Sequence record: PZ338878.1
Source: a phage
Reading direction: 5' to 3' (one strand)
DNA: 64,000 nucleotides
Shown here in pieces: positions 19,051-47,525 of this stretch. The stretch's first letter is position 1. Every line of letters begins with the position of its first letter. The translations under genes and the position numbers were made by a program. The notes under the pieces were generated by a model, which was given only the letters and a program-made list of their open reading frames with translations, was not told the origin of the DNA and made no database searches.

Positions 19051-19155
19051 TTGACATATGCAAACAAGCCCCGTAATATGTACCACATAGAGCGGGGCAA
19101 CTTCTCAAAGGTGAAATAAAAAATCAGTTGACACCTGAAATCAGTAAGCTATAAT
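19051..19155 (+). promoter_or_regulatory. tandem promoters (first with degenerate hairpin)
   Basis: TTGACA at 19051 and TTGACA N16 TATAAT at 19128-19155. Confidence 0.5.
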
Positions 19156-39796: not shown

Positions 39797-39819
39797 AAAC
39801 CCGCTTCGGCGGGTTTTCT
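39797..39819 (+). terminator. rho-independent terminator
   Basis: AAACCCGC-TTCG-GCGGGTTTTCTT. Confidence 0.7.
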
Positions 39820-39876: not shown

Positions 39877-40098
39877 ATGTCTGTAGTTGTAGAAGGTAGT
39901 ATTGGTTTCTTAGTAGATAACCCTCACCCTTTCGTGGTTAAGGTTCATATTCAAGAAAAGGTAAGCAACAATACGTGGCTGTGCTTGTTAGATAGTAAGA
40001 TACACTCTTATACAGAGGTTTATCTTCACACTTGGCAAATTGGTACAATAACAGCAGAGGATGAATTGATAATTGAACTATATGAACGAGATCTATAG
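39877..40098 (+). CDS. hypothetical protein (73 aa)
   Basis: RBS AGGAGGT. Confidence 0.5.
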   Translation: MSVVVEGSIGFLVDNPHPFVVKVHIQEKVSNNTWLCLLDSKIHSYTEVYLHTWQIGTITAEDELIIELYERDL

Positions 40099-40179
40099 AT
40101 GACTTTACTAGAGAGTATTGTAGTGTTAATCATCTTTATCATTATTGTCATAGGATATTTTACAGAAGACTAAAATAAA

Positions 40180-40203
40180 GCCCCTAGAATCGCTTCTAGG
40201 GGC
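40180..40203. terminator. bidirectional terminator between convergent blocks
   Basis: GCCCCTAGAA-TCGC-TTCTAGGGGC flanked by A-run and T-run. Confidence 0.65.
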
Positions 40204-40273
40204 TTTTGTTTGCATTAGGTAGGGAAACGTATTACTAAAATAAAAAGTGCGTTAGAATGCGTTACAGGAGGTT

Positions 40274-40531
40274 TTAGGAATGCATAAAATCTTCTTCAGG
40301 GCAGGTTGAGAGATAAGAGATGCACGTTGGGACAACAACAACATTGTCTTTAAGGTTTTCAACCAAGCCTTTTGTAATCCCAGCCACTGCCCCGTTAATA
40401 TCTGCTTGACGGATACCAAAGCCTTGTTGTGCGGATAGGTAACAAAATCCCTCGCCTTTCTGTTGATTGTTATTGAAGTAATAAACGTAGTGCATCATAA
40501 AATGGTCTTTAACGATTTGTTCTGTGGTCAT
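40274..40531 (-). CDS. hypothetical protein (85 aa)
   Basis: ORF. Confidence 0.5.
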   Translation of the reverse strand: MTTEQIVKDHFMMHYVYYFNNNQQKGEGFCYLSAQQGFGIRQADINGAVAGITKGLVENLKDNVVVVPTCISYLSTCPEEDFMHS

Positions 40532-40550
40532 AATATTCTCCTATAAGAAA

Positions 40551-40566
40551 AGGGGCTTTCGCCCCC
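40551..40566 (-). terminator. terminator/attenuator hairpin after Sir2-like gene
   Basis: GGGGC-TTTC-GCCCC; T-run on minus strand. Confidence 0.55.
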
Positions 40567-40575
40567 TTGGTTAAG

Positions 40576-41388
40576 TTATTTAGTCAAATGATCTTCTATC
40601 ATTTTTATGAAAGCAGGATTGCTAAAAGCATCTGCGGCTTTTTCTCGATAAACAAAGACTCCTCTATCTTCGTAAAGAAGAGTTTCTTCGTAATTAATTC
40701 CTGGGTTAACAACAATCATTTTTGTACCCATATTAAGTGCAGGGAATAATTCCCAATTAAAATTGATAACTTGGTTTGAACATCCTACTACAACAACCAA
40801 ATCTTGCATGGTCAAAGTATCAAACAAGTGAGCCATATCTGCATACAAAGGTGCAGCCTCACCAAAAAATACAACATTAGGCTTCACCCAGTTATAATCA
40901 TCTATGTTTATGCTGTTGTAACCAATATCTACCAGTGTTTTGTAATCTCCAGGATGCATACGGTAAACTACTTCAGGAAGATATCCGTGCACGTGAATAA
41001 CCGAATCTCTGTCTACACCTGCTCGCTCTAGTAGATCATCAACGTTTGTTGTCAAGTTTACTACTTGGTTAGGATATTCCTTAAACCACTTTGCTATTTG
41101 AATATGTGCAGCATTAGGTTGTACATCTTTAAGCTCAACACGTCTTTTGTTATAAAATTCGTGTGTTTTGGCATACAAATCCATACCGTTTTCGTCTACA
41201 CCACCAACCACTGGAAGATCTGGAGATGTTCTCACACGATAACCTGCTTGGAAAGCTCCAATATTGCAGACCTCTTCTAAATCATATTCTTCCCATAAAG
41301 CACGACCACTATCTGTGTCTGTTCGGAATGTTCGAATCCCACTGTCTGCACTTAAACCAGCTCCACTAACAAAAATTACTCTTCGCAT
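40576..41388 (-). CDS. Sir2-family (sirtuin/CobB-like) protein
   Basis: GAGLSADSGIRTFR, TTNVDDL, HG, VVFFGE, VVGCS motifs. Confidence 0.8.
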   Translation of the reverse strand: MRRVIFVSGAGLSADSGIRTFRTDTDSGRALWEEYDLEEVCNIGAFQAGYRVRTSPDLPVVGGVDENGMDLYAKTHEFYNKRRVELKDVQPNAAHIQIAKWFKEYPNQVVNLTTNVDDLLERAGVDRDSVIHVHGYLPEVVYRMHPGDYKTLVDIGYNSINIDDYNWVKPNVVFFGEAAPLYADMAHLFDTLTMQDLVVVVGCSNQVINFNWELFPALNMGTKMIVVNPGINYEETLLYEDRGVFVYREKAADAFSNPAFIKMIEDHLTK

Positions 41389-41930
41389 TCAATATCCTCT
41401 TCGTAATCATCATACCAAGAAGATGCGTCGTAACGCTCTTCCTCTTCGAAATCCCAATTAATTTCTACTCCAAAATCTAAAAACAATTTAACAATGTTTT
41501 CTGTAGAATAGTATTTATCATAAGCGTTAGCTAGTTCCCAATACTTATCACTCAATTTTTTATAATTAGGATCATTGTAATCATGAGCTACTTTATCACC
41601 ATAATCATACATCTCTTCTTCAGCTTTAAGCATAGCTTCTGGTGTAAGAAGATTAGGGAACGGACGATTTCTTTCTTTTAACTTAGAAGCAATCCAGTTT
41701 GCAACATTCGCCACTTCACCATCTCGATTATCACCTAAACAACTTGCATAATCTCCATCTTCGTAAGTGCCTAAATCCCCACTGACTTCATGTACAATAG
41801 ATGAATACGATCCACACGTTTCACAATCTGAAAAAGTGTCTACTGTTGTAATATCAATAGATAAAACTGGTAAAGCCATAGCTTCTTTCACACAAGCCTC
41901 CTCATATAATAACATATCATCAAAACCCAT
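41376..41930 (-). CDS. acidic hypothetical protein (about 184 aa)
   Basis: start at ATG 41930 after GGAGGA; D/E-rich. Confidence 0.45.
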   Translation of the reverse strand: MGFDDMLLYEEACVKEAMALPVLSIDITTVDTFSDCETCGSYSSIVHEVSGDLGTYEDGDYASCLGDNRDGEVANVANWIASKLKERNRPFPNLLTPEAMLKAEEEMYDYGDKVAHDYNDPNYKKLSDKYWELANAYDKYYSTENIVKLFLDFGVEINWDFEEEERYDASSWYDDYEEDIECEE

Positions 41931-41949
41931 ATATCCTCCAGACAAATAA

Positions 41950-41966
41950 AGCCCCTGGTTGGGGCT
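41950..41966 (-). terminator. terminator/attenuator hairpin
   Basis: GCCCC-TGGTT-GGGGC. Confidence 0.5.
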
Positions 41967-41984
41967 TTGGTTAAGTTTTACAGA

Positions 41985-42596
41985 TTATACCAGACTTTTA
42001 AGGTAGTTGTCAAGTGCTTCTTGATCACCTTGACAAACATAGCAACGGAAGTCTTGAGCAGAAGGTTCTTTGTCCTCTTCCCAATCCCAATAGACAGTAC
42101 CTTTATAGCGTGAACCTGGAAACTCGAAGTATGCTACGTGGGTAATATGGTGTGGGCCACCCCAAAACTCTGTAAAAGTAAATTGAGGATACGCTGCTTT
42201 AACTGTATTTTCAAACCAAGTTTTACGATCTAATGCTTCGTTTATAAAATAAGCATGGCGTTCCATTTCATCCCAATCTTTCCAAACGCATTTTTCATCC
42301 AGAGAAAAAACAAAATTCTCACTGTTAAAATCGTCTGTATCTGATTCCAAAATATCATAATCATGTGCGCTAGGTATCCACCATCCAGCTTCTAATAGTG
42401 CTTTCGCAGGTACAAAACCTTTTTCAGCGTATTGATCAAATTCTTTTACTCTACGTACAGTGCAGTATTCATCTTCACCACCAATGTCCAGCATACAAGC
42501 GCCTTTGCGTCTTGCTGCAAGACCATGTGTATCAAAAACTACAACACTACCTTCACCATCTTCACGATCTACTTGATATGCCACTTTTTGAGTCAT
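41985..42596 (-). CDS. hypothetical protein (203 aa)
   Basis: ORF. Confidence 0.5.
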   Translation of the reverse strand: MTQKVAYQVDREDGEGSVVVFDTHGLAARRKGACMLDIGGEDEYCTVRRVKEFDQYAEKGFVPAKALLEAGWWIPSAHDYDILESDTDDFNSENFVFSLDEKCVWKDWDEMERHAYFINEALDRKTWFENTVKAAYPQFTFTEFWGGPHHITHVAYFEFPGSRYKGTVYWDWEEDKEPSAQDFRCYVCQGDQEALDNYLKSLV

Positions 42597-42719
42597 ATTA
42601 CCCCCAATGTATATGGGAAATTAACCAAAAGATAAATTCCCAAAAACACCAACCAAGAAAAGTTAATGGAATTATAAAAGCTATCAGAGCAGTCTTCCAG
42701 CCTTTCCACAATGTTTCCA

Positions 42720-43709
42720 TCATTCCTCCATACACTTAAGAATATGTGCAATGACAGGTATAGTCCAACCATTACCTAACATCTTATATGCTTGTGTGTT
42801 ACTACTCACTTTAAAGTAATCATCTGGAACACCTTGTAAGCGGCAACACTCTTTAACCGTTAACTTTCTATAATGCACACCTTCACTCAATTTTTCAAAG
42901 GCATCCAGATATCTTCCAGGTGGAATGTAAGCTAATAGTACGTCTTTCGGCACAGTCGTGAGGCAACGAGTTTTTTCACTGTCCTGAACTTCCAAGCAAT
43001 GTACCAAACGATCAGTTTTAGATGTACTACGTTTGCCATTTTCATTAATTCTACGCCCATATATTGCTGCTGGATAAAAAACCAGTTGTCTGCGACTCTT
43101 TTCAAAATACTGTTCTATATTACCACCTTTGGCATAATTTGCATCTATGCAATACGCCTTGTCCCTGTCTACAATACTATCATCTTCAATAATATCTTGC
43201 AACACTTCATTGGTAATATCCCAAGGCTTTATTTCCCAATTGCACCAGTATAAACGTTGTCTATTCTGTGCCGTGAAATCTGCGGAGTTAATGAATACGG
43301 GATCAACACCTAAGTAACTTGTGATCACGTTTTCCCACTCTACCTTCATCTTAACGTTTTCAAGCATGAACTTAACATTAGGGTTAAACTTTTTAATATG
43401 TTCAAGAATTTCAACATATTCAAAGAACAGTTTAGATCGCGGATCTTGAAAGTTCAAACCCTTACCAGAAGAAGAGAAGCCTTGGCACGGGCTACCACCT
43501 AACAAAAGATCAATTTCTCCCCACGGGATATCCCATTCTCTCCATTTTGTAACATCCCCTAATTGAATAATGTCTGGAAAATTGGCTTGGCTTTCAGCTA
43601 TGGCAAATTTGTCCAATTCTGAGGCATAATATTTATCTACTTCAATACCTGCACTTTTTAGTGCAAGCATTCCTCCTGACATACCATCAAAAAGACTTAA
43701 AACTTTCAT
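42720..43709 (-). CDS. DNA (cytosine-5)-methyltransferase
   Basis: FDGMSGG (motif I), GSPCQGFS (IV), ENV (VI), QNRQR (VIII). Confidence 0.85.
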   Translation of the reverse strand: MKVLSLFDGMSGGMLALKSAGIEVDKYYASELDKFAIAESQANFPDIIQLGDVTKWREWDIPWGEIDLLLGGSPCQGFSSSGKGLNFQDPRSKLFFEYVEILEHIKKFNPNVKFMLENVKMKVEWENVITSYLGVDPVFINSADFTAQNRQRLYWCNWEIKPWDITNEVLQDIIEDDSIVDRDKAYCIDANYAKGGNIEQYFEKSRRQLVFYPAAIYGRRINENGKRSTSKTDRLVHCLEVQDSEKTRCLTTVPKDVLLAYIPPGRYLDAFEKLSEGVHYRKLTVKECCRLQGVPDDYFKVSSNTQAYKMLGNGWTIPVIAHILKCMEE

Positions 43710-44122
43710 TATTGCTTCTTCTCCTTAACACTAGCTGGTAATTCTGCCTTAAGGCAGAAGTTTAAACGGTAAGCCTCATTTTCATTTAAAAGTACAGATT
43801 CACACGATAACCAAAACAAGAGATCCTCAATACTAGGACTGTTAAGCCAACAGTGCAGAAGAGAATGTTGTTCTATATCAATGTAATTTAGCAACAAGCC
43901 TTGTAAGGCGTAACTAGTTCCTGTCGCTTTTGCTTTTTCAAGGATGATATTGTGTTTACTAACAACCTTCTTTCTAAGACCAAACCATTTACTAACAACA
44001 ACAGTCTCTTCTTGTAGTTGTTTTCTTATTTTCTCACATTCTTTAACTACAATCTGCATCTTATCCACTGCTGATTGAAGTTGTTCTTTTGTTGGGTTTA
44101 CAAAATAGTCACTATAATACAT
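43709..44122 (-). CDS. hypothetical protein (137 aa)
   Basis: ORF. Confidence 0.5.
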   Translation of the reverse strand: MYYSDYFVNPTKEQLQSAVDKMQIVVKECEKIRKQLQEETVVVSKWFGLRKKVVSKHNIILEKAKATGTSYALQGLLLNYIDIEQHSLLHCWLNSPSIEDLLFWLSCESVLLNENEAYRLNFCLKAELPASVKEKKQ

Positions 44123-44181
44123 GCTAATCTCCTCTTCTGTTTTTGTGTAGTTTATTCGAAAAAACTAGTGTTGTCAACAAA

Positions 44182-44201
44182 AAACCCGCCGAAGCGGGTT
44201 T
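44182..44201 (-). terminator. rho-independent terminator
   Basis: AAACCCGC-CGAA-GCGGGTTT; T-run on minus strand. Confidence 0.6.
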
Positions 44202-44462: not shown

Positions 44463-44983
44463 ACAACCTCCTCGTAATTGTTATTGTGTTTTACTGTCTC
44501 AACATACAATAAAGATTCCATCTGTAAGACATTACCAGAAATAATAAACCCATAAGCCATTTCAGATGTATCTATATCGTATGCCCCATCTTCCGGTTTA
44601 GCAAAGTGTAAAACTATTTCATCTGGGTTTTCTTCATCCCATATTTTAGAAATTTTCCGAACCAGAATATTAGCTAAAATAGTTGACATTCGGGATAAAG
44701 CCGTATCCTCGTATCTTTTAAAACCTAACCAATAGAGGTTAAGAATTTCTACTTCTTCTTGTGTTAAGTTTTTGTCTAAAGTAATCAGATCTGTAGTGCA
44801 CGGCGTTTTTGTTGAACCTACTGTTACAAAACCTGGAGTGTTATGAAAAACAATCTTAACTTTATCACGTATGAAGTTTAAACCTTGTGCCTCAACTATA
44901 TATTGTATTGTAGGTACAATATCGTTTGTTACATCAATAAAGCTATCTTTGATGACGCTTATATTATTTCTGGACAAGACCAT
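44459..44983 (-). CDS. hypothetical protein (174 aa)
   Basis: ORF. Confidence 0.5.
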   Translation of the reverse strand: MVLSRNNISVIKDSFIDVTNDIVPTIQYIVEAQGLNFIRDKVKIVFHNTPGFVTVGSTKTPCTTDLITLDKNLTQEEVEILNLYWLGFKRYEDTALSRMSTILANILVRKISKIWDEENPDEIVLHFAKPEDGAYDIDTSEMAYGFIISGNVLQMESLLYVETVKHNNNYEEVV

Positions 44984-45542
44984 TCTCCTCTAAAATAGGT
45001 TTAATAAATTCGAAGATTTGTTTTTTACTTTTACCTCGAATATTAAAACAAGGAACATTAAACTTTTTAGCCAACATCCAAGCTGTTCTTGTACCACCCA
45101 AAGGATCTCCATTTTTATCTGTATTTGCACAAGCTAAAAGAAAACAAGACGGTTTTGGATTCTCAAGATCTTTGCCAAGAACTTGGTGGATATTCCTTTG
45201 ATGCAATTTTTTAGCACCTTGAGATAATCTGTCCCAAGCCGGATGCAATTCTTTTGCATATTGCAAGGTTAGAGCATAGTTTACACTATCTGGTCTGTCA
45301 AGAACAATAACCTCTCCCTCTATCTCATTACCTTTAAACGAAGGCCAAGGAATGTATATTTCTTTCTTTGTATTGTTTCCACTATCATATACCCCGCATT
45401 CAAATGCGGAATCTGCACCTTCTGCTTTACCAGATCGTAAAATGAACCATGTAGATAACCATTTTGCAACAGCTACCATAGTGTCCCATTCTTCGTCTGT
45501 AATATCTCTGCTACCAACACCTGTGTAGAATAAATCGCTCAT
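44964..45542 (-). CDS. SLOG/DprA-like Rossmann-fold protein (193 aa)
   Basis: TGVGSRDI...RSGKAEGADSAFECG resembles DprA/Smf motif; start at ATG 45542 with AAGGAG. Confidence 0.4.
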   Translation of the reverse strand: MSDLFYTGVGSRDITDEEWDTMVAVAKWLSTWFILRSGKAEGADSAFECGVYDSGNNTKKEIYIPWPSFKGNEIEGEVIVLDRPDSVNYALTLQYAKELHPAWDRLSQGAKKLHQRNIHQVLGKDLENPKPSCFLLACANTDKNGDPLGGTRTAWMLAKKFNVPCFNIRGKSKKQIFEFIKPILEENGLVQK

Positions 45543-45552
45543 GGTTTTCTCC

Positions 45553-45873
45553 TTAACAAGTAATATTGGGAATAATACTGGGAGTAACAATTGGAGTAAT
45601 AGGGTACGTAAACCAAGGGCTTCCAATTTCCCAAGGACTATAAGGTGTACGAGGATCAAATGGAGGCGTTACTTGAGGCTTTTTCCAAATCTCCTCTAGT
45701 TGTTTCTTCCATTTATCCCTTGCTGTATCGTTATCTTCATCCAACTGTTCGTCATTATCTTTTATTTCTGATTTTGGAAATAAAAGCTCTTTGACTAACT
45801 CAACGTCTTCCGTTTCAATAGTAGTTTCTTTCGTAATATTCCCTACCGTCTCTTTAATTGTGACTTTATACAT
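45553..45873 (-). CDS. hypothetical protein (106 aa)
   Basis: ORF. Confidence 0.5.
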   Translation of the reverse strand: MYKVTIKETVGNITKETTIETEDVELVKELLFPKSEIKDNDEQLDEDNDTARDKWKKQLEEIWKKPQVTPPFDPRTPYSPWEIGSPWFTYPITPIVTPSIIPNITC

Positions 45874-46619
45874 TAGTCCTCCTCTAAAGTAGAATAAAAT
45901 TGTAACGTATTTGAATCATTAAAATATGCAAAGGTTAAATTACCATTGAAGCAAGATCCTGTATCCATATATACCCTATTACTGCTAATTACAGGTTTAG
46001 GAACATAAGAATGCCCGTGAAATACATAATCTACTCCTGAAACTCTAGGAAGAAGAATCCCTTCAAGGGCGCAATCTATCATATCACGATCCCACATTAA
46101 AGATTCTGTGAATCGAGATACTTGTTCTTTATTCATATTCGAACAAAATGGCAAAACTTCCGTCACTGGTAGATGTTCCAAAACTGAAGGATATCCTCCG
46201 TGAATAAAGCCTAGTTTCATATTACGATAGTTGACAACAAGTACAACAGGTAAGTCTTCTAGCATCAAAGCAAGAGCAGTTGCACCTTCTTCTCCACACT
46301 CGTTTAGAACTGTATGGCCTCCGTTCTGAAACCAACATTCGTAATATCGCCTATCACCTTCTAGCAACCCTTTAATCATCATATCTTCGTGATTTCCACG
46401 AATAGCATAGCGATTTAGCTTTCTGGTGAATTCAACGGTACAACGAAAATTCTGCTTGCCGCGATCTGTAAGATCTCCTAAAGATACAACAACATCTTGA
46501 TCTCGGATACCTAAAGTATTAACACCTTTCTGGTATAAATCAAAGCAACCATGTAAATCACCAATAATAAACAGGTCTTGATCATCTTTTACACTAATTT
46601 CTTGATATACTAGCATCAA
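45873..46619 (-). CDS. Ser/Thr protein phosphatase (calcineurin-like metallophosphoesterase)
   Basis: GDLHG, GDLTDRG, GNHE motifs. Confidence 0.85.
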   Translation of the reverse strand: MMLVYQEISVKDDQDLFIIGDLHGCFDLYQKGVNTLGIRDQDVVVSLGDLTDRGKQNFRCTVEFTRKLNRYAIRGNHEDMMIKGLLEGDRRYYECWFQNGGHTVLNECGEEGATALALMLEDLPVVLVVNYRNMKLGFIHGGYPSVLEHLPVTEVLPFCSNMNKEQVSRFTESLMWDRDMIDCALEGILLPRVSGVDYVFHGHSYVPKPVISSNRVYMDTGSCFNGNLTFAYFNDSNTLQFYSTLEED

Positions 46620-46952: not shown

Positions 46953-47525
46953 TTAATGTGTTAATGAAACTGCGTAACTAAACACAGGTTCAGATATTAC
47001 ATCGGCTACAGTAATAAAAACGTCCTCATCTTGCGTTGTTTCTACACGACATACAGTTACACCATTTACTACAAATTCAACGCAATGTGGAATATCTTCA
47101 CAAACGAATGTAGTGTAAGTAACACCCAAAGCATCATACAAAGATTTAACAGTATTTGCAAGTGCCGCAGTTTCTTCTTTTTCTGAGACAATGAATGCTG
47201 TAACAACAAGATTGTTTGCATAGTTTAGACTGTCCTCTATAGCCAATGATTTACAAGGTAGTAATGCAAAATATTTACCTGGTTTAATCAGACCTGCTTC
47301 CCATTGATTCAAAATTGCCTGGGATGGTTTAGTAATATAAAACAGATTTTCACTTGGGTTATCAATATTACTTCTGGCGATACAACGTGAAGGATTATTA
47401 ATATCAAACACATGATCAAAATCTACACAAACTGGTAAACTGAAAGGTGTAAATTTTTTACCTAATAATCCTACTGCTGACAATATGTTTGCTGTGCTTA
47501 TCTTCCCGTTAAAAGCTAAACGCAT
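46953..47525 (-). CDS. hypothetical protein (190 aa)
   Basis: ORF. Confidence 0.5.
   Translation of the reverse strand: MRLAFNGKISTANILSAVGLLGKKFTPFSLPVCVDFDHVFDINNPSRCIARSNIDNPSENLFYITKPSQAILNQWEAGLIKPGKYFALLPCKSLAIEDSLNYANNLVVTAFIVSEKEETAALANTVKSLYDALGVTYTTFVCEDIPHCVEFVVNGVTVCRVETTQDEDVFITVADVISEPVFSYAVSLTH

Follow-up and report, generated by a model that had tools for sequence, protein, structure and literature searches.

The stretch of phage DNA analysed here (sequence record PZ338878.1; 64,000 nucleotides, hereafter the window) encodes a stand-alone Sir2-family protein, referred to below as the phage Sir2. Based on its sequence and predicted fold, we consider it highly probable (about 0.85) that this protein is an active sirtuin that consumes NAD+ (nicotinamide adenine dinucleotide) and belongs to a phage-specific, zinc-less clade, and that it is not a defence-type NADase. 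As for its activity, we tentatively favour an early accessory NAD-dependent protein acyl-lysine deacylase, i.e., a CobB-like deacetylase/desuccinylase, with a probability that we put at roughly 0.4. The gene and the residues kept in its product are as follows:

40576–41388, minus strand: Sir2-family protein, zinc-less class III-like, PHROG 2162; 270 residues (profiles, alignments, AlphaFold2/Foldseek)
Residues kept in this protein: GAGLS 9–13, F21/R22, Y79-x-x-R82, N115/D117, H134, V172, and N228

The family assignment is far beyond chance. Pfam SIR2 (PF02146) is the sole Pfam match of the protein (E = 1.7e-22, 80.7 bits; gathering cut-off 24), and PHROG 2162 (“Sir2, NAD-dependent deacetylase”) covers residues 1–269 with an E-value of 2.9e-106, which bears out the identity proposed in an initial annotation made from the sequence alone. 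The nearest solved sequence is that of E. coli CobB (1s5p, E = 1.2e-18), followed by the archaeal Sir2-Af and SIRT5; the identity to the class III sirtuins CobB and SIRT5 is only ~27%. The AlphaFold2 (AF2) model, built from an alignment of 17 homologues, shows the sirtuin fold with a mean predicted local distance difference test score (pLDDT) of 84.7 and a predicted TM-score (pTM) of 0.84. Foldseek retrieved 267 PDB matches for this model at E ≤ 0.001, the best being CobB (E = 2.4e-17, TM-score of 0.84 normalised to the target), Sir2-Af1, and SIRT5. Structures of defence-type SIR2 NADases were absent from the top 50 Foldseek matches, and none of the defence SIR2 models in PADLOC was matched; the sole PADLOC match, PDC-S65, spans 37 residues at the chance level of 13.8 bits (E = 0.0066). 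The likeness to bacterial anti-phage Sir2 effectors, to which the initial annotation had pointed, is therefore not supported, and between a sirtuin and a SIR2-effector fold, the structure prediction places the protein with the former.

Both the sequence and the predicted fold put the phage Sir2 closest to class III deacylases. Among the NCBIfam models, only those of CobB-type deacylases matched, all far under their curated cut-offs, and because of these low scores we regard the protein as a relative of class III deacylases and not as a CobB orthologue. The 270 residues form a single domain with no fused or adjacent SLOG, HerA, pAgo, or tail-tube-binding sensor. The gene is flanked by an acidic orphan gene and an 85-residue open reading frame (ORF), and a SLOG/DprA-like gene lies 3.6 kb off, beyond the promoter and the hairpin of the Sir2 transcription unit. 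A test for the arrangement of SirTM, the ADP-ribosylating sirtuins linked to macrodomains, found no Macro domain in the nine proteins scanned between positions 40274 and 46619.

We compared the residues in a core alignment of 17 homologues with 56–75% identity to the window protein and in a second alignment that takes in the distant copies from T5, rV5-like, Mydo, Vibrio, and jumbo phages. Residues 9–22 (GAGLSADSGIRTFR) fit the NAD-binding motif GAGxSxxxGIxxFR. G9, A10, G11, S13, F21, R22, C41, F78, Y79, R82, and R83 are invariant across the 17 homologues, as are N115, D117, H134, V172, F174, F175, E177, and N228 (the KPNV-FF-E segment is kept). H134 aligns with H147 of CobB, and N115 and D117 align with N130 and D132. 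Both H134 and N115 are invariant in the two alignments, and D117 is invariant in the core alignment; a single distant Vibrio copy has it one column off. A loss of catalytic residues on careful alignment, considered at the outset, was thus not observed, N115, D117, and H134 all being present. As judged from the alignments, every residue that canonical sirtuins use for NAD+ binding, nicotinamide expulsion, and activation of the ribose 2′-OH is present, and the phage Sir2 very probably uses NAD+.

Class III sirtuins are defined by a Tyr-x-x-Arg pocket (Y92/R95 in CobB, Y102/R105 in SIRT5). The phage Sir2 has this pocket as Y79 and R82 within the sequence FYNKRR, invariant in the 17-sequence core alignment. 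In the alignment, A76, Y92, R95, I131, and V187 of CobB correspond to C41, Y79, R82, V116, and V172 of the phage protein, which are all invariant and which we take to be acyl-lysine pocket positions. A76, Y92, I131, and V187 are positions named in the titles of engineered-CobB PDB entries, where the Y92A title shows only that Y92 was targeted in acyl-specificity engineering.

The “full set of sirtuin motifs” noted initially is therefore correct for the NAD-binding and catalytic residues but not for the remainder. The four zinc cysteines are missing: the CobB cysteine positions align to other residues, and there is no cysteine between H134 and K169. The same absence was found in every phage homologue aligned, including those of T5, rV5-like, Mydo, Vibrio, and jumbo phages. 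The AF2 model keeps a small β-sheet at the position of the zinc module. The glutamine of the QN(I/V)D motif is replaced by threonine (TTNVDD, against TQNID in CobB), and all aligned phage copies have Thr, Ala, or Ser there. The loop after the GTS motif normally helps to clamp the peptide in sirtuins; after the equivalent motif of the phage protein, an invariant NFNWE sequence stands in place of the VYP loop of CobB, with AF2 pLDDT values partly below 50. A variable insertion of ~25–30 residues (roughly residues 46–75) is without counterpart in the aligned Mydo, rV5, and T5 copies. The phage sirtuin family is acidic with isoelectric points (pI) of 4.7–5.8, like the CobB core, and contains no conserved basic residues beyond those common to CobB. 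Overall, the phage Sir2 shares with CobB and SIRT5 the Rossmann core, GAGxS, FR, N-x-D, the catalytic histidine, the Tyr-x-x-Arg pocket, and the lysine-tunnel residues, whereas it differs from them by the low identity, the lost zinc cysteines, and the TTNVDD and NFNWE replacements.

We favour a deacylase because the class III catalytic and acyl-pocket residues and the hydrophobic lysine-tunnel residues are all retained, and because the family is acidic, has no extra conserved basic residues, and the gene stands alone in this lineage. The enzyme would bind NAD+ together with an acyl-lysine in a protein of the host or the phage, whereupon the acyl oxygen would attack C1′ of the nicotinamide ribose and nicotinamide would leave. 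His134 would then promote the attack by the 2′-OH, giving the deacylated lysine and O-acyl-ADP-ribose as products. Given its Tyr-x-x-Arg pocket, the enzyme may prefer acyl groups with a negative charge (succinyl, malonyl), in addition to acetyl. For CobB itself, deacetylase, desuccinylase, and lipoamidase activities are documented (PMC8556138). The biological role would be an accessory, early resetting of host-protein acylation that is dispensable on laboratory E. coli.

Genetic data for a homologue fit such an accessory role. In the HIDEN-SEQ transposon screen (bioRxiv 10.1101/2025.11.20.689424, Extended Data Table 8), the sirtuin gene of phage Bas54, bas54_0207, was hit at 48 of 51 TA sites and classed as “Non-essential” on E. 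coli K-12. The Bas54 genes beside it, for RNA ligase, polynucleotide kinase, phosphoesterase, and DNA ligase, were non-essential as well. A host comparison in that preprint showed no depletion of bas54_0207 (log2 fold change of 0.13, q = 1), and the Bas54 anti-defence hits named there for the clinical isolates tested are other genes. Around the sirtuin gene, Bas54 and the rV5-like phage WalterGehring have matching gene orders, and we therefore treat bas54_0207 as a homologue and not as the gene of the window itself; its identity of ~48% to the latter is an estimate from other rV5-like copies. We ruled out Bas54 as a member of the genus of the window, as its order is rV5-like and PaulScherrer is Bas60.

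Several observations weigh against a deacylase. The NCBIfam scores fall far short of their cut-offs, with 106.8 bits against 243 for NF001753 and 87 against 320 for NF040867. R82, the counterpart of CobB R95, is leucine in the jumbo-phage branch. The changes noted above, in the zinc module, at the Gln-to-Thr position, and in the NFNWE loop, fall exactly at the parts that would bind the substrate. Moreover, Sir2 is found among RNA-end or ADP-ribose enzymes in three independent phage groups, and a full-text literature search returned no biochemical or genetic study of the activity of any phage sirtuin.

The window is DNA of an E. coli myophage of the genus Justusliebigvirus (phAPEC8-like), judged from its sequence: the region 40000–44200 is 97–99% identical to dozens of deposited genomes of this genus (Stephanstirmvirinae). 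The gene is already known. The near-identical records label it “Sir2,” “NAD-dependent deacetylase,” or “sirtuin family protein,” it has its own PHROG, and a “distinct clade of viral sirtuins” was described by Iyer, Burroughs, Anantharaman, and Aravind (Iyer et al., 2022; PMC9503650). By tblastn, we found Sir2 in 984 of 50,697 phage records (~2%). The carriers include T5, T5-like Salmonella and Klebsiella phages, rV5-like Vequintavirinae, Mydovirus, and phAPEC8-like phages, as well as a 90-kb Salmonella phage type, Vibrio schizo-T4 phages, and jumbo phages of 330–370 kb. Contrary to the initial view, there is thus nothing unusual about a phage with a stand-alone Sir2. Gene T5.102, annotated as “putative Sir2-like protein” in the T5 record AY543070, is 53% identical to the window protein, compared with 48–50% for the rV5-like copies and 57% for Mydo (47–62% overall for T5, rV5, Mydo, and T5-like phages).

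The observation of the sequence thus adds nothing new, and the point of interest is the function of an enzyme carried by ~2% of phages, including the model phage T5. Its 50–60% identity across unrelated phage families, taken together with its dispensability in the laboratory, suggests a conditional function that depends on host state or defence. To decide between host-protein deacylation and RNA repair would fill a gap in phage NAD biology, and with T5 and the BASEL phages being genetically tractable, the question is cheap to settle.

We analysed the neighbourhoods of 56 Sir2-bearing IMG/VR loci with 10-kb flanks, clustering the ORFs by all-against-all BLASTP and sorting the loci into 21 lineages by Sir2 identity. 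No neighbour is common to all 21 lineages, and the most widespread one occurs in 9 of them. In rV5/Mydo-like phages, the order is metallophosphoesterase, RNA ligase, cREC, AAA_33 kinase, Sir2, DNA ligase, and MazG. T5-like phages have NrdD, small ORFs, Sir2, a 60-residue ORF, a phosphatase, and DUF7415, in which the phosphatase belongs to HAD_SAK_2, “Swiss-army-knife RNA repair” (E = 6.7e-19). The jumbo phages show a small gene annotated as “RNA ligase,” which we judged to be 2H-like by size alone, then Sir2, one further gene, and Nudix, with NAMPT and PhoH close by. An RNA-end or ADP-ribose processing gene lies within 10 kb of Sir2 in 12 of the 21 lineages.

The Stephanstirmvirinae order is different: a DUF7275 protein, a 137-residue protein, a methyltransferase slot, the 203-residue protein, the acidic protein, Sir2, and the 85-residue protein. 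In the window, Sir2 stands at the 3′ end of a nucleotide-metabolism gene block, and Pfam and PHROG scans within 5 kb of it identified Dcm, orphan proteins, a SLOG-like gene, and a NinI-like phosphatase; RNA ligase, kinase, cREC, HAD, 2H, and Nudix genes were not found within this distance. The T5.102 and rV5-type members of the phage sirtuin clade resemble the window protein in the full-length PHROG match, the motif set, and the absence of zinc cysteines. Unlike them, the Sir2 of this subfamily is not beside RNA ligase, kinase, cREC, HAD, or 2H genes, and the subfamily has its own consensus promoter, a lineage-specific acidic partner, and the insertion of 25–30 residues. In the collinear reference phage alia (NC_052655), a module of RNA ligase, phosphoesterase, ATPase/kinase, DNA ligase, and MazG is located at 129–139 kb, ~30 kb from Sir2 and outside the window, collinear with the module that flanks Sir2 in rV5-like phages. 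Sir2 therefore seems to have parted from the RNA-repair module in this subfamily.

RNA ligase homologues were found in 702 phage records, mostly of Pseudomonas, Streptomyces, and Vibrio phages and of large E. coli myophages. No T5-like phage is among the 40 RNA ligase records listed, and Salmonella phage records with the ligase number 15, compared with 289 with Sir2. Given these different distributions, the co-occurrence of Sir2 and RNA ligase is only partial.

All four ORFs named initially, for Sir2, the acidic protein, the 203-residue protein, and Dcm, are present on the minus strand at the coordinates in the ORF list of the window. The features around the Sir2 gene are, in order of position:

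40177–40206, no strand assigned: bidirectional intrinsic terminator with a 13-bp stem (terminator scan)
40274–40531, minus strand: 85-residue ORF, phrog_15991, last gene of the minus-strand block (ORF list, PHROG)
40550–40568, minus strand: weak terminator-like hairpin just after the Sir2 stop codon; 6-bp stem with 4 GC pairs and a T-rich tail
41376–41930, minus strand: acidic orphan protein, phrog_9509; 184 residues from an ATG behind a GGAGG ribosome-binding site
41948–41968, minus strand: GC-rich hairpin with a T-run between promoter and acidic gene (terminator scan)
41984–42013, minus strand: sigma-70 promoter, TTGACA-18 nt-TATAAT with extended TG, 12/12 consensus; predicted to drive the acidic gene and Sir2
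41985–42596, minus strand: 203-residue acidic protein, phrog_8514, pI 4.58, of the upstream transcription unit
42720–43709, minus strand: orphan Dcm-type C5-cytosine DNA methyltransferase, 329 residues (PF00145, TIGR00675)

The promoter overlaps the end of the 203-residue gene. The 64-kb window has two perfect consensus promoters, where 0.10 would be expected by chance; the other one (TTGACA-N16-TATAAT, 19128–19155, plus strand) may mark another strong early transcription unit. The Sir2 promoter is conserved at 11–12 of 12 positions in the divergent sister lineages L010, L012, and L014. In lineage L011, which is devoid of the acidic gene, the same promoter is located directly in front of Sir2, from which we conclude that it is a Sir2 promoter and that the family can do without the acidic protein. 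In the window's lineage, Sir2 is probably expressed early by the host RNA polymerase from this host-type promoter. The hairpin at 41948–41968 is present in both the minimum free energy and the centroid folds, even though the stability of the full 66 nt is within the ordinary range (z = −0.73). Sister lineages conserve this hairpin, which is predicted to be terminator-like for the upstream operon and to form a hairpin in the 5′ untranslated region of the Sir2 transcript. At the terminator at 40177–40206, a plus-strand array of small early genes converges with the minus-strand block, and the GC skew changes sign near 40 kb. An identical 20-nt palindromic terminator hairpin (AAACCCGCTTCGGCGGGTTT) occurs at 39797–39816 and at 44182–44201, 4.4 kb apart; the pair flanks the Sir2-Dcm block and scores as a terminator on both strands. 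The 85-residue ORF (cluster c78) follows Sir2 in three Stephanstirmvirinae lineages (3, 4, and 9).

The acidic protein is the sole neighbour coupled to Sir2: as read from the sequence, the two genes have a common promoter and overlapping stop and start codons, with the Sir2 ORF beginning 13 nt before the acidic gene ends, an overlap kept in three lineages. The two proteins would be co-expressed without the acidic one being required by the family. The mechanical ORF list opens the acidic gene at an upstream TTG (189 residues); we adopted the ATG start, which gives 184 residues. The strong acidity noted initially is confirmed by a pI of 4.05 and a net charge of −32, and the protein has a disordered acidic tail and a conserved CxxC…C motif. 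A further, seemingly conserved C-terminal cysteine proved to be an artefact of the Sir2 ATG embedded in GAATGC. The protein matches PHROG 9509 (E = 6.4e-67) but has only 11 representatives among 1.84 billion protein clusters, and neither fold searches with its AF2 model (pLDDT 79.9, 3-sequence alignment) nor sequence searches returned a relative pointing to its function. It was found in 137 phage records and the 203-residue protein in 154, nearly all of Stephanstirmvirinae, compared with 984 for Sir2. The acidic gene is missing in lineages L011 and L058, and none of the T5-like, rV5-like, Mydo, and jumbo Sir2 loci examined has it. We rejected the label “putative aminoacyl-tRNA synthetase” given to its orthologue in BASEL, as there is no Pfam match. 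The orthologue of the gene at 46953–47525 carries the same label; that gene is no paralogue of the acidic gene (BLASTP E = 3.4) and is also without Pfam match, and for these reasons the label looks unfounded.

Among the other explanations for the phage Sir2, the proposal of Iyer et al. (2022; PMC9503650), derived from gene neighbourhoods, is of KptA-like RNA 2′-phosphate removal, i.e., an RNA-repair sirtuin for NAD+-dependent processing of RNA 2′-phosphates or related RNA ends as an analogue of Tpt1/KptA. We regard it as the main rival, with a somewhat lower probability than a deacylase. An RNA 2′-phosphate that remains once tRNA or mRNA cut by a nuclease has been healed and sealed would attack C1′ of NAD+ with loss of nicotinamide, and the 2′-OH of the ADP-ribose would then remove the phosphate as ADP-ribose 1″,2″-cyclic phosphate, the other steps being left to phage RNA ligase, kinase, cREC, phosphoesterase, 2H, Nudix, and HAD enzymes. 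The chemistries of sirtuins and Tpt1 are indeed formally parallel, and the loss of the zinc module and the altered substrate loops fit a change of substrate. Our analysis reproduced the three independent neighbourhoods (rV5/Mydo-like, T5-like, and jumbo) without published annotation, with at least one such gene within 10 kb in the 12 lineages counted above, the HAD_SAK_2 phosphatase after Sir2 in T5-like phages, and the ligase-containing module elsewhere in the genome of the reference phage. However, in the window and in all Stephanstirmvirinae, Sir2 is ~30 kb from that module and has its own promoter, and part of the early-region gene order is inherited synteny. The co-occurrence with RNA ligase is incomplete, the Pseudomonas and Streptomyces ligase carriers not being among the Sir2-bearing groups listed. 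A typical Tpt1/KptA enzyme is basic, whereas the phage sirtuin family is strongly acidic without conserved basic residues beyond those of CobB, and it retains the hydrophobic lysine-tunnel residues. Apart from the RNA healing and sealing enzymes next to Sir2 in other phage lineages, the likeness to Tpt1/KptA lies only in the proposed activity (NAD+ use, nicotinamide release, 2″-OH attack), as the folds are unrelated. If true, it would make the phage Sir2 the first sirtuin shown to act on RNA and would complete phage repair of tRNAs cut by anticodon nucleases; with the idea already published, only an experimental demonstration would be new.

More doubtful is a NADase or ADP-ribosyltransferase used as a weapon, for host shutdown, for exclusion of competitors, or for pre-empting or countering NAD-based defence such as Thoeris, DSR, or SIR2-HerA. 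Sirtuins can ADP-ribosylate, a strong early promoter suits a takeover function, Sir2 phages often also carry NAD-salvage or NARP-type genes, and anti-defence genes are usually non-essential in the laboratory, as the Bas54 homologue is. The defence SIR2 NADases (ThsA, DSR1/DSR2, SIR2-HerA, SIR2-pAgo) belong to the same superfamily, use NAD+, and likewise have no zinc module (PMC9503650). However, they are host-encoded, and the phage Sir2 matches none of their PADLOC profiles, has none of their structures among its top 50 fold matches, contains none of their sensor domains, and keeps the catalytic histidine and the acyl pocket of true deacylases. Draining NAD+ would also hurt a phage that has its own NAD-reconstitution-type genes, and bas54_0207 is not among the anti-defence hits named in the preprint for the clinical isolates tested. 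Nothing in our analysis supports the initial suggestion that the protein counters NAD-based defence. In the reference phage alia, such a function fits more plausibly an adjacent pair of PRPP-synthetase-like and NAMPT-like genes of the NARP1 type (bioRxiv 10.1101/2024.02.11.579819), which is separate from Sir2, ~30 kb away and outside the window. The least probable of the explanations we weighed, compatible with any substrate, is a two-component unit in which the acidic protein would be a dedicated partner of Sir2, acting as inhibitor or antitoxin, specificity factor, or DNA/RNA mimic. The common promoter and the 13-nt overlap kept in three lineages speak for it, as do the extreme negative charge, the disordered tail, and the CxxC…C motif. 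Against it, L011 has Sir2 alone behind the same promoter, L058 and all the T5-like, rV5-like, Mydo, and jumbo loci also do without the acidic gene, no small ORF is universally beside Sir2, no relative in fold or sequence hints at a function, and the “conserved” C-terminal cysteine is an artefact.

We also rejected a universal small CxxC partner that would give zinc in trans, as the small ORFs beside Sir2 differ between lineages and the C-terminal cysteine of the acidic protein merely reflects the embedded Sir2 ATG. In T5-like loci such as L031 and L038, two small paralogous ORFs, c103 and c22 (phrog_5116), overlap or follow the Sir2 stop codon and share a (S/D)G(S/T)WCY motif, and a c22 copy is placed likewise in the 90-kb Salmonella-phage type.

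Dcm and the 203-residue protein are unrelated neighbours of Sir2 kept in lineage-specific synteny, as far as the sequences tell. The grouping of Sir2 with the acidic protein, the 203-residue protein, and Dcm in the initial annotation had implied a four-gene module, and a conserved module of this kind is ruled out by the tblastn distributions and the clustering of the 21 lineages: the acidic and 203-residue proteins are nearly limited to the subfamily, Dcm is confined to the genus, and no neighbour is shared throughout. For the 203-residue protein, no solved relative was found; siphophages of Pseudomonas and Xanthomonas that have no Sir2 show distant partial matches to it. The identity of the Dcm-type methyltransferase, in turn, was correctly recognised. 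It matches PF00145 (E = 3.4e-43, 148.7 bits; threshold 22) and TIGR00675 (140.1 bits; cut-off 100.65), and motifs I, IV, VI, VIII, and X are readable as FDGMSGG, SPCQGFS, LENV, QNRQR, and GNGW. Similar to other orphan phage C5-methyltransferases, it combines full catalytic motifs and scores above threshold with the absence of a cognate restriction enzyme gene nearby, and self-protection against restriction is a reasonable inference. Some 55 records of this genus have it at an identity of 95% or more, and the next matches, in unrelated Vibrio and jumbo phages, reach at most 52%, whereas in sister lineages its slot is filled by a different small C5-methyltransferase-like gene of 227–241 residues, phrog_757 (E = 7.5e-84). 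Because of this genus-only near-identity and the phrog_757 gene in the sister slot, Dcm appears to be a horizontally acquired orphan methylase in a replaceable slot. In L052, of the 90-kb Salmonella-phage type, a phrog_757 gene is directly beside Sir2; the adjacency of methyltransferase and Sir2 is recurrent but not universal (loci L012, L011, L014, L058, and L052).

Two genes further upstream on the same strand may be mentioned. The NinI-like calcineurin-type phosphoesterase (45873–46619, minus strand), 4.5 kb upstream of Sir2, belongs to another cluster than the metallophosphoesterase that accompanies Sir2 in rV5/Mydo phages. The DprA/SLOG-like protein (44964–45542, minus strand; phrog_768) is without Pfam match, and its gene (cluster52) is found again at 3–7 kb from Sir2 in lineages of Stephanstirmvirinae and in two that are T5-like. 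SLOG domains in Thoeris bind ADP-ribose-derived nucleotides, and by analogy a tie of this gene to NAD/ADP-ribose signalling is conceivable.

Four GenBank records, MG065639, MG065645, MG065656, and MG065689, are labelled “Campylobacter phage” with C. jejuni as host and are 98.3% identical to the E. coli phages over the full query (positions 40000–44200 of the window); the label is probably a host or labelling error. A small ORF with a hydrophobic segment (42593–42772, minus strand) overlaps the 3′ end of the Dcm gene and may encode a small membrane protein, of which PaulScherrer has a 41-residue version (bas60_0188).

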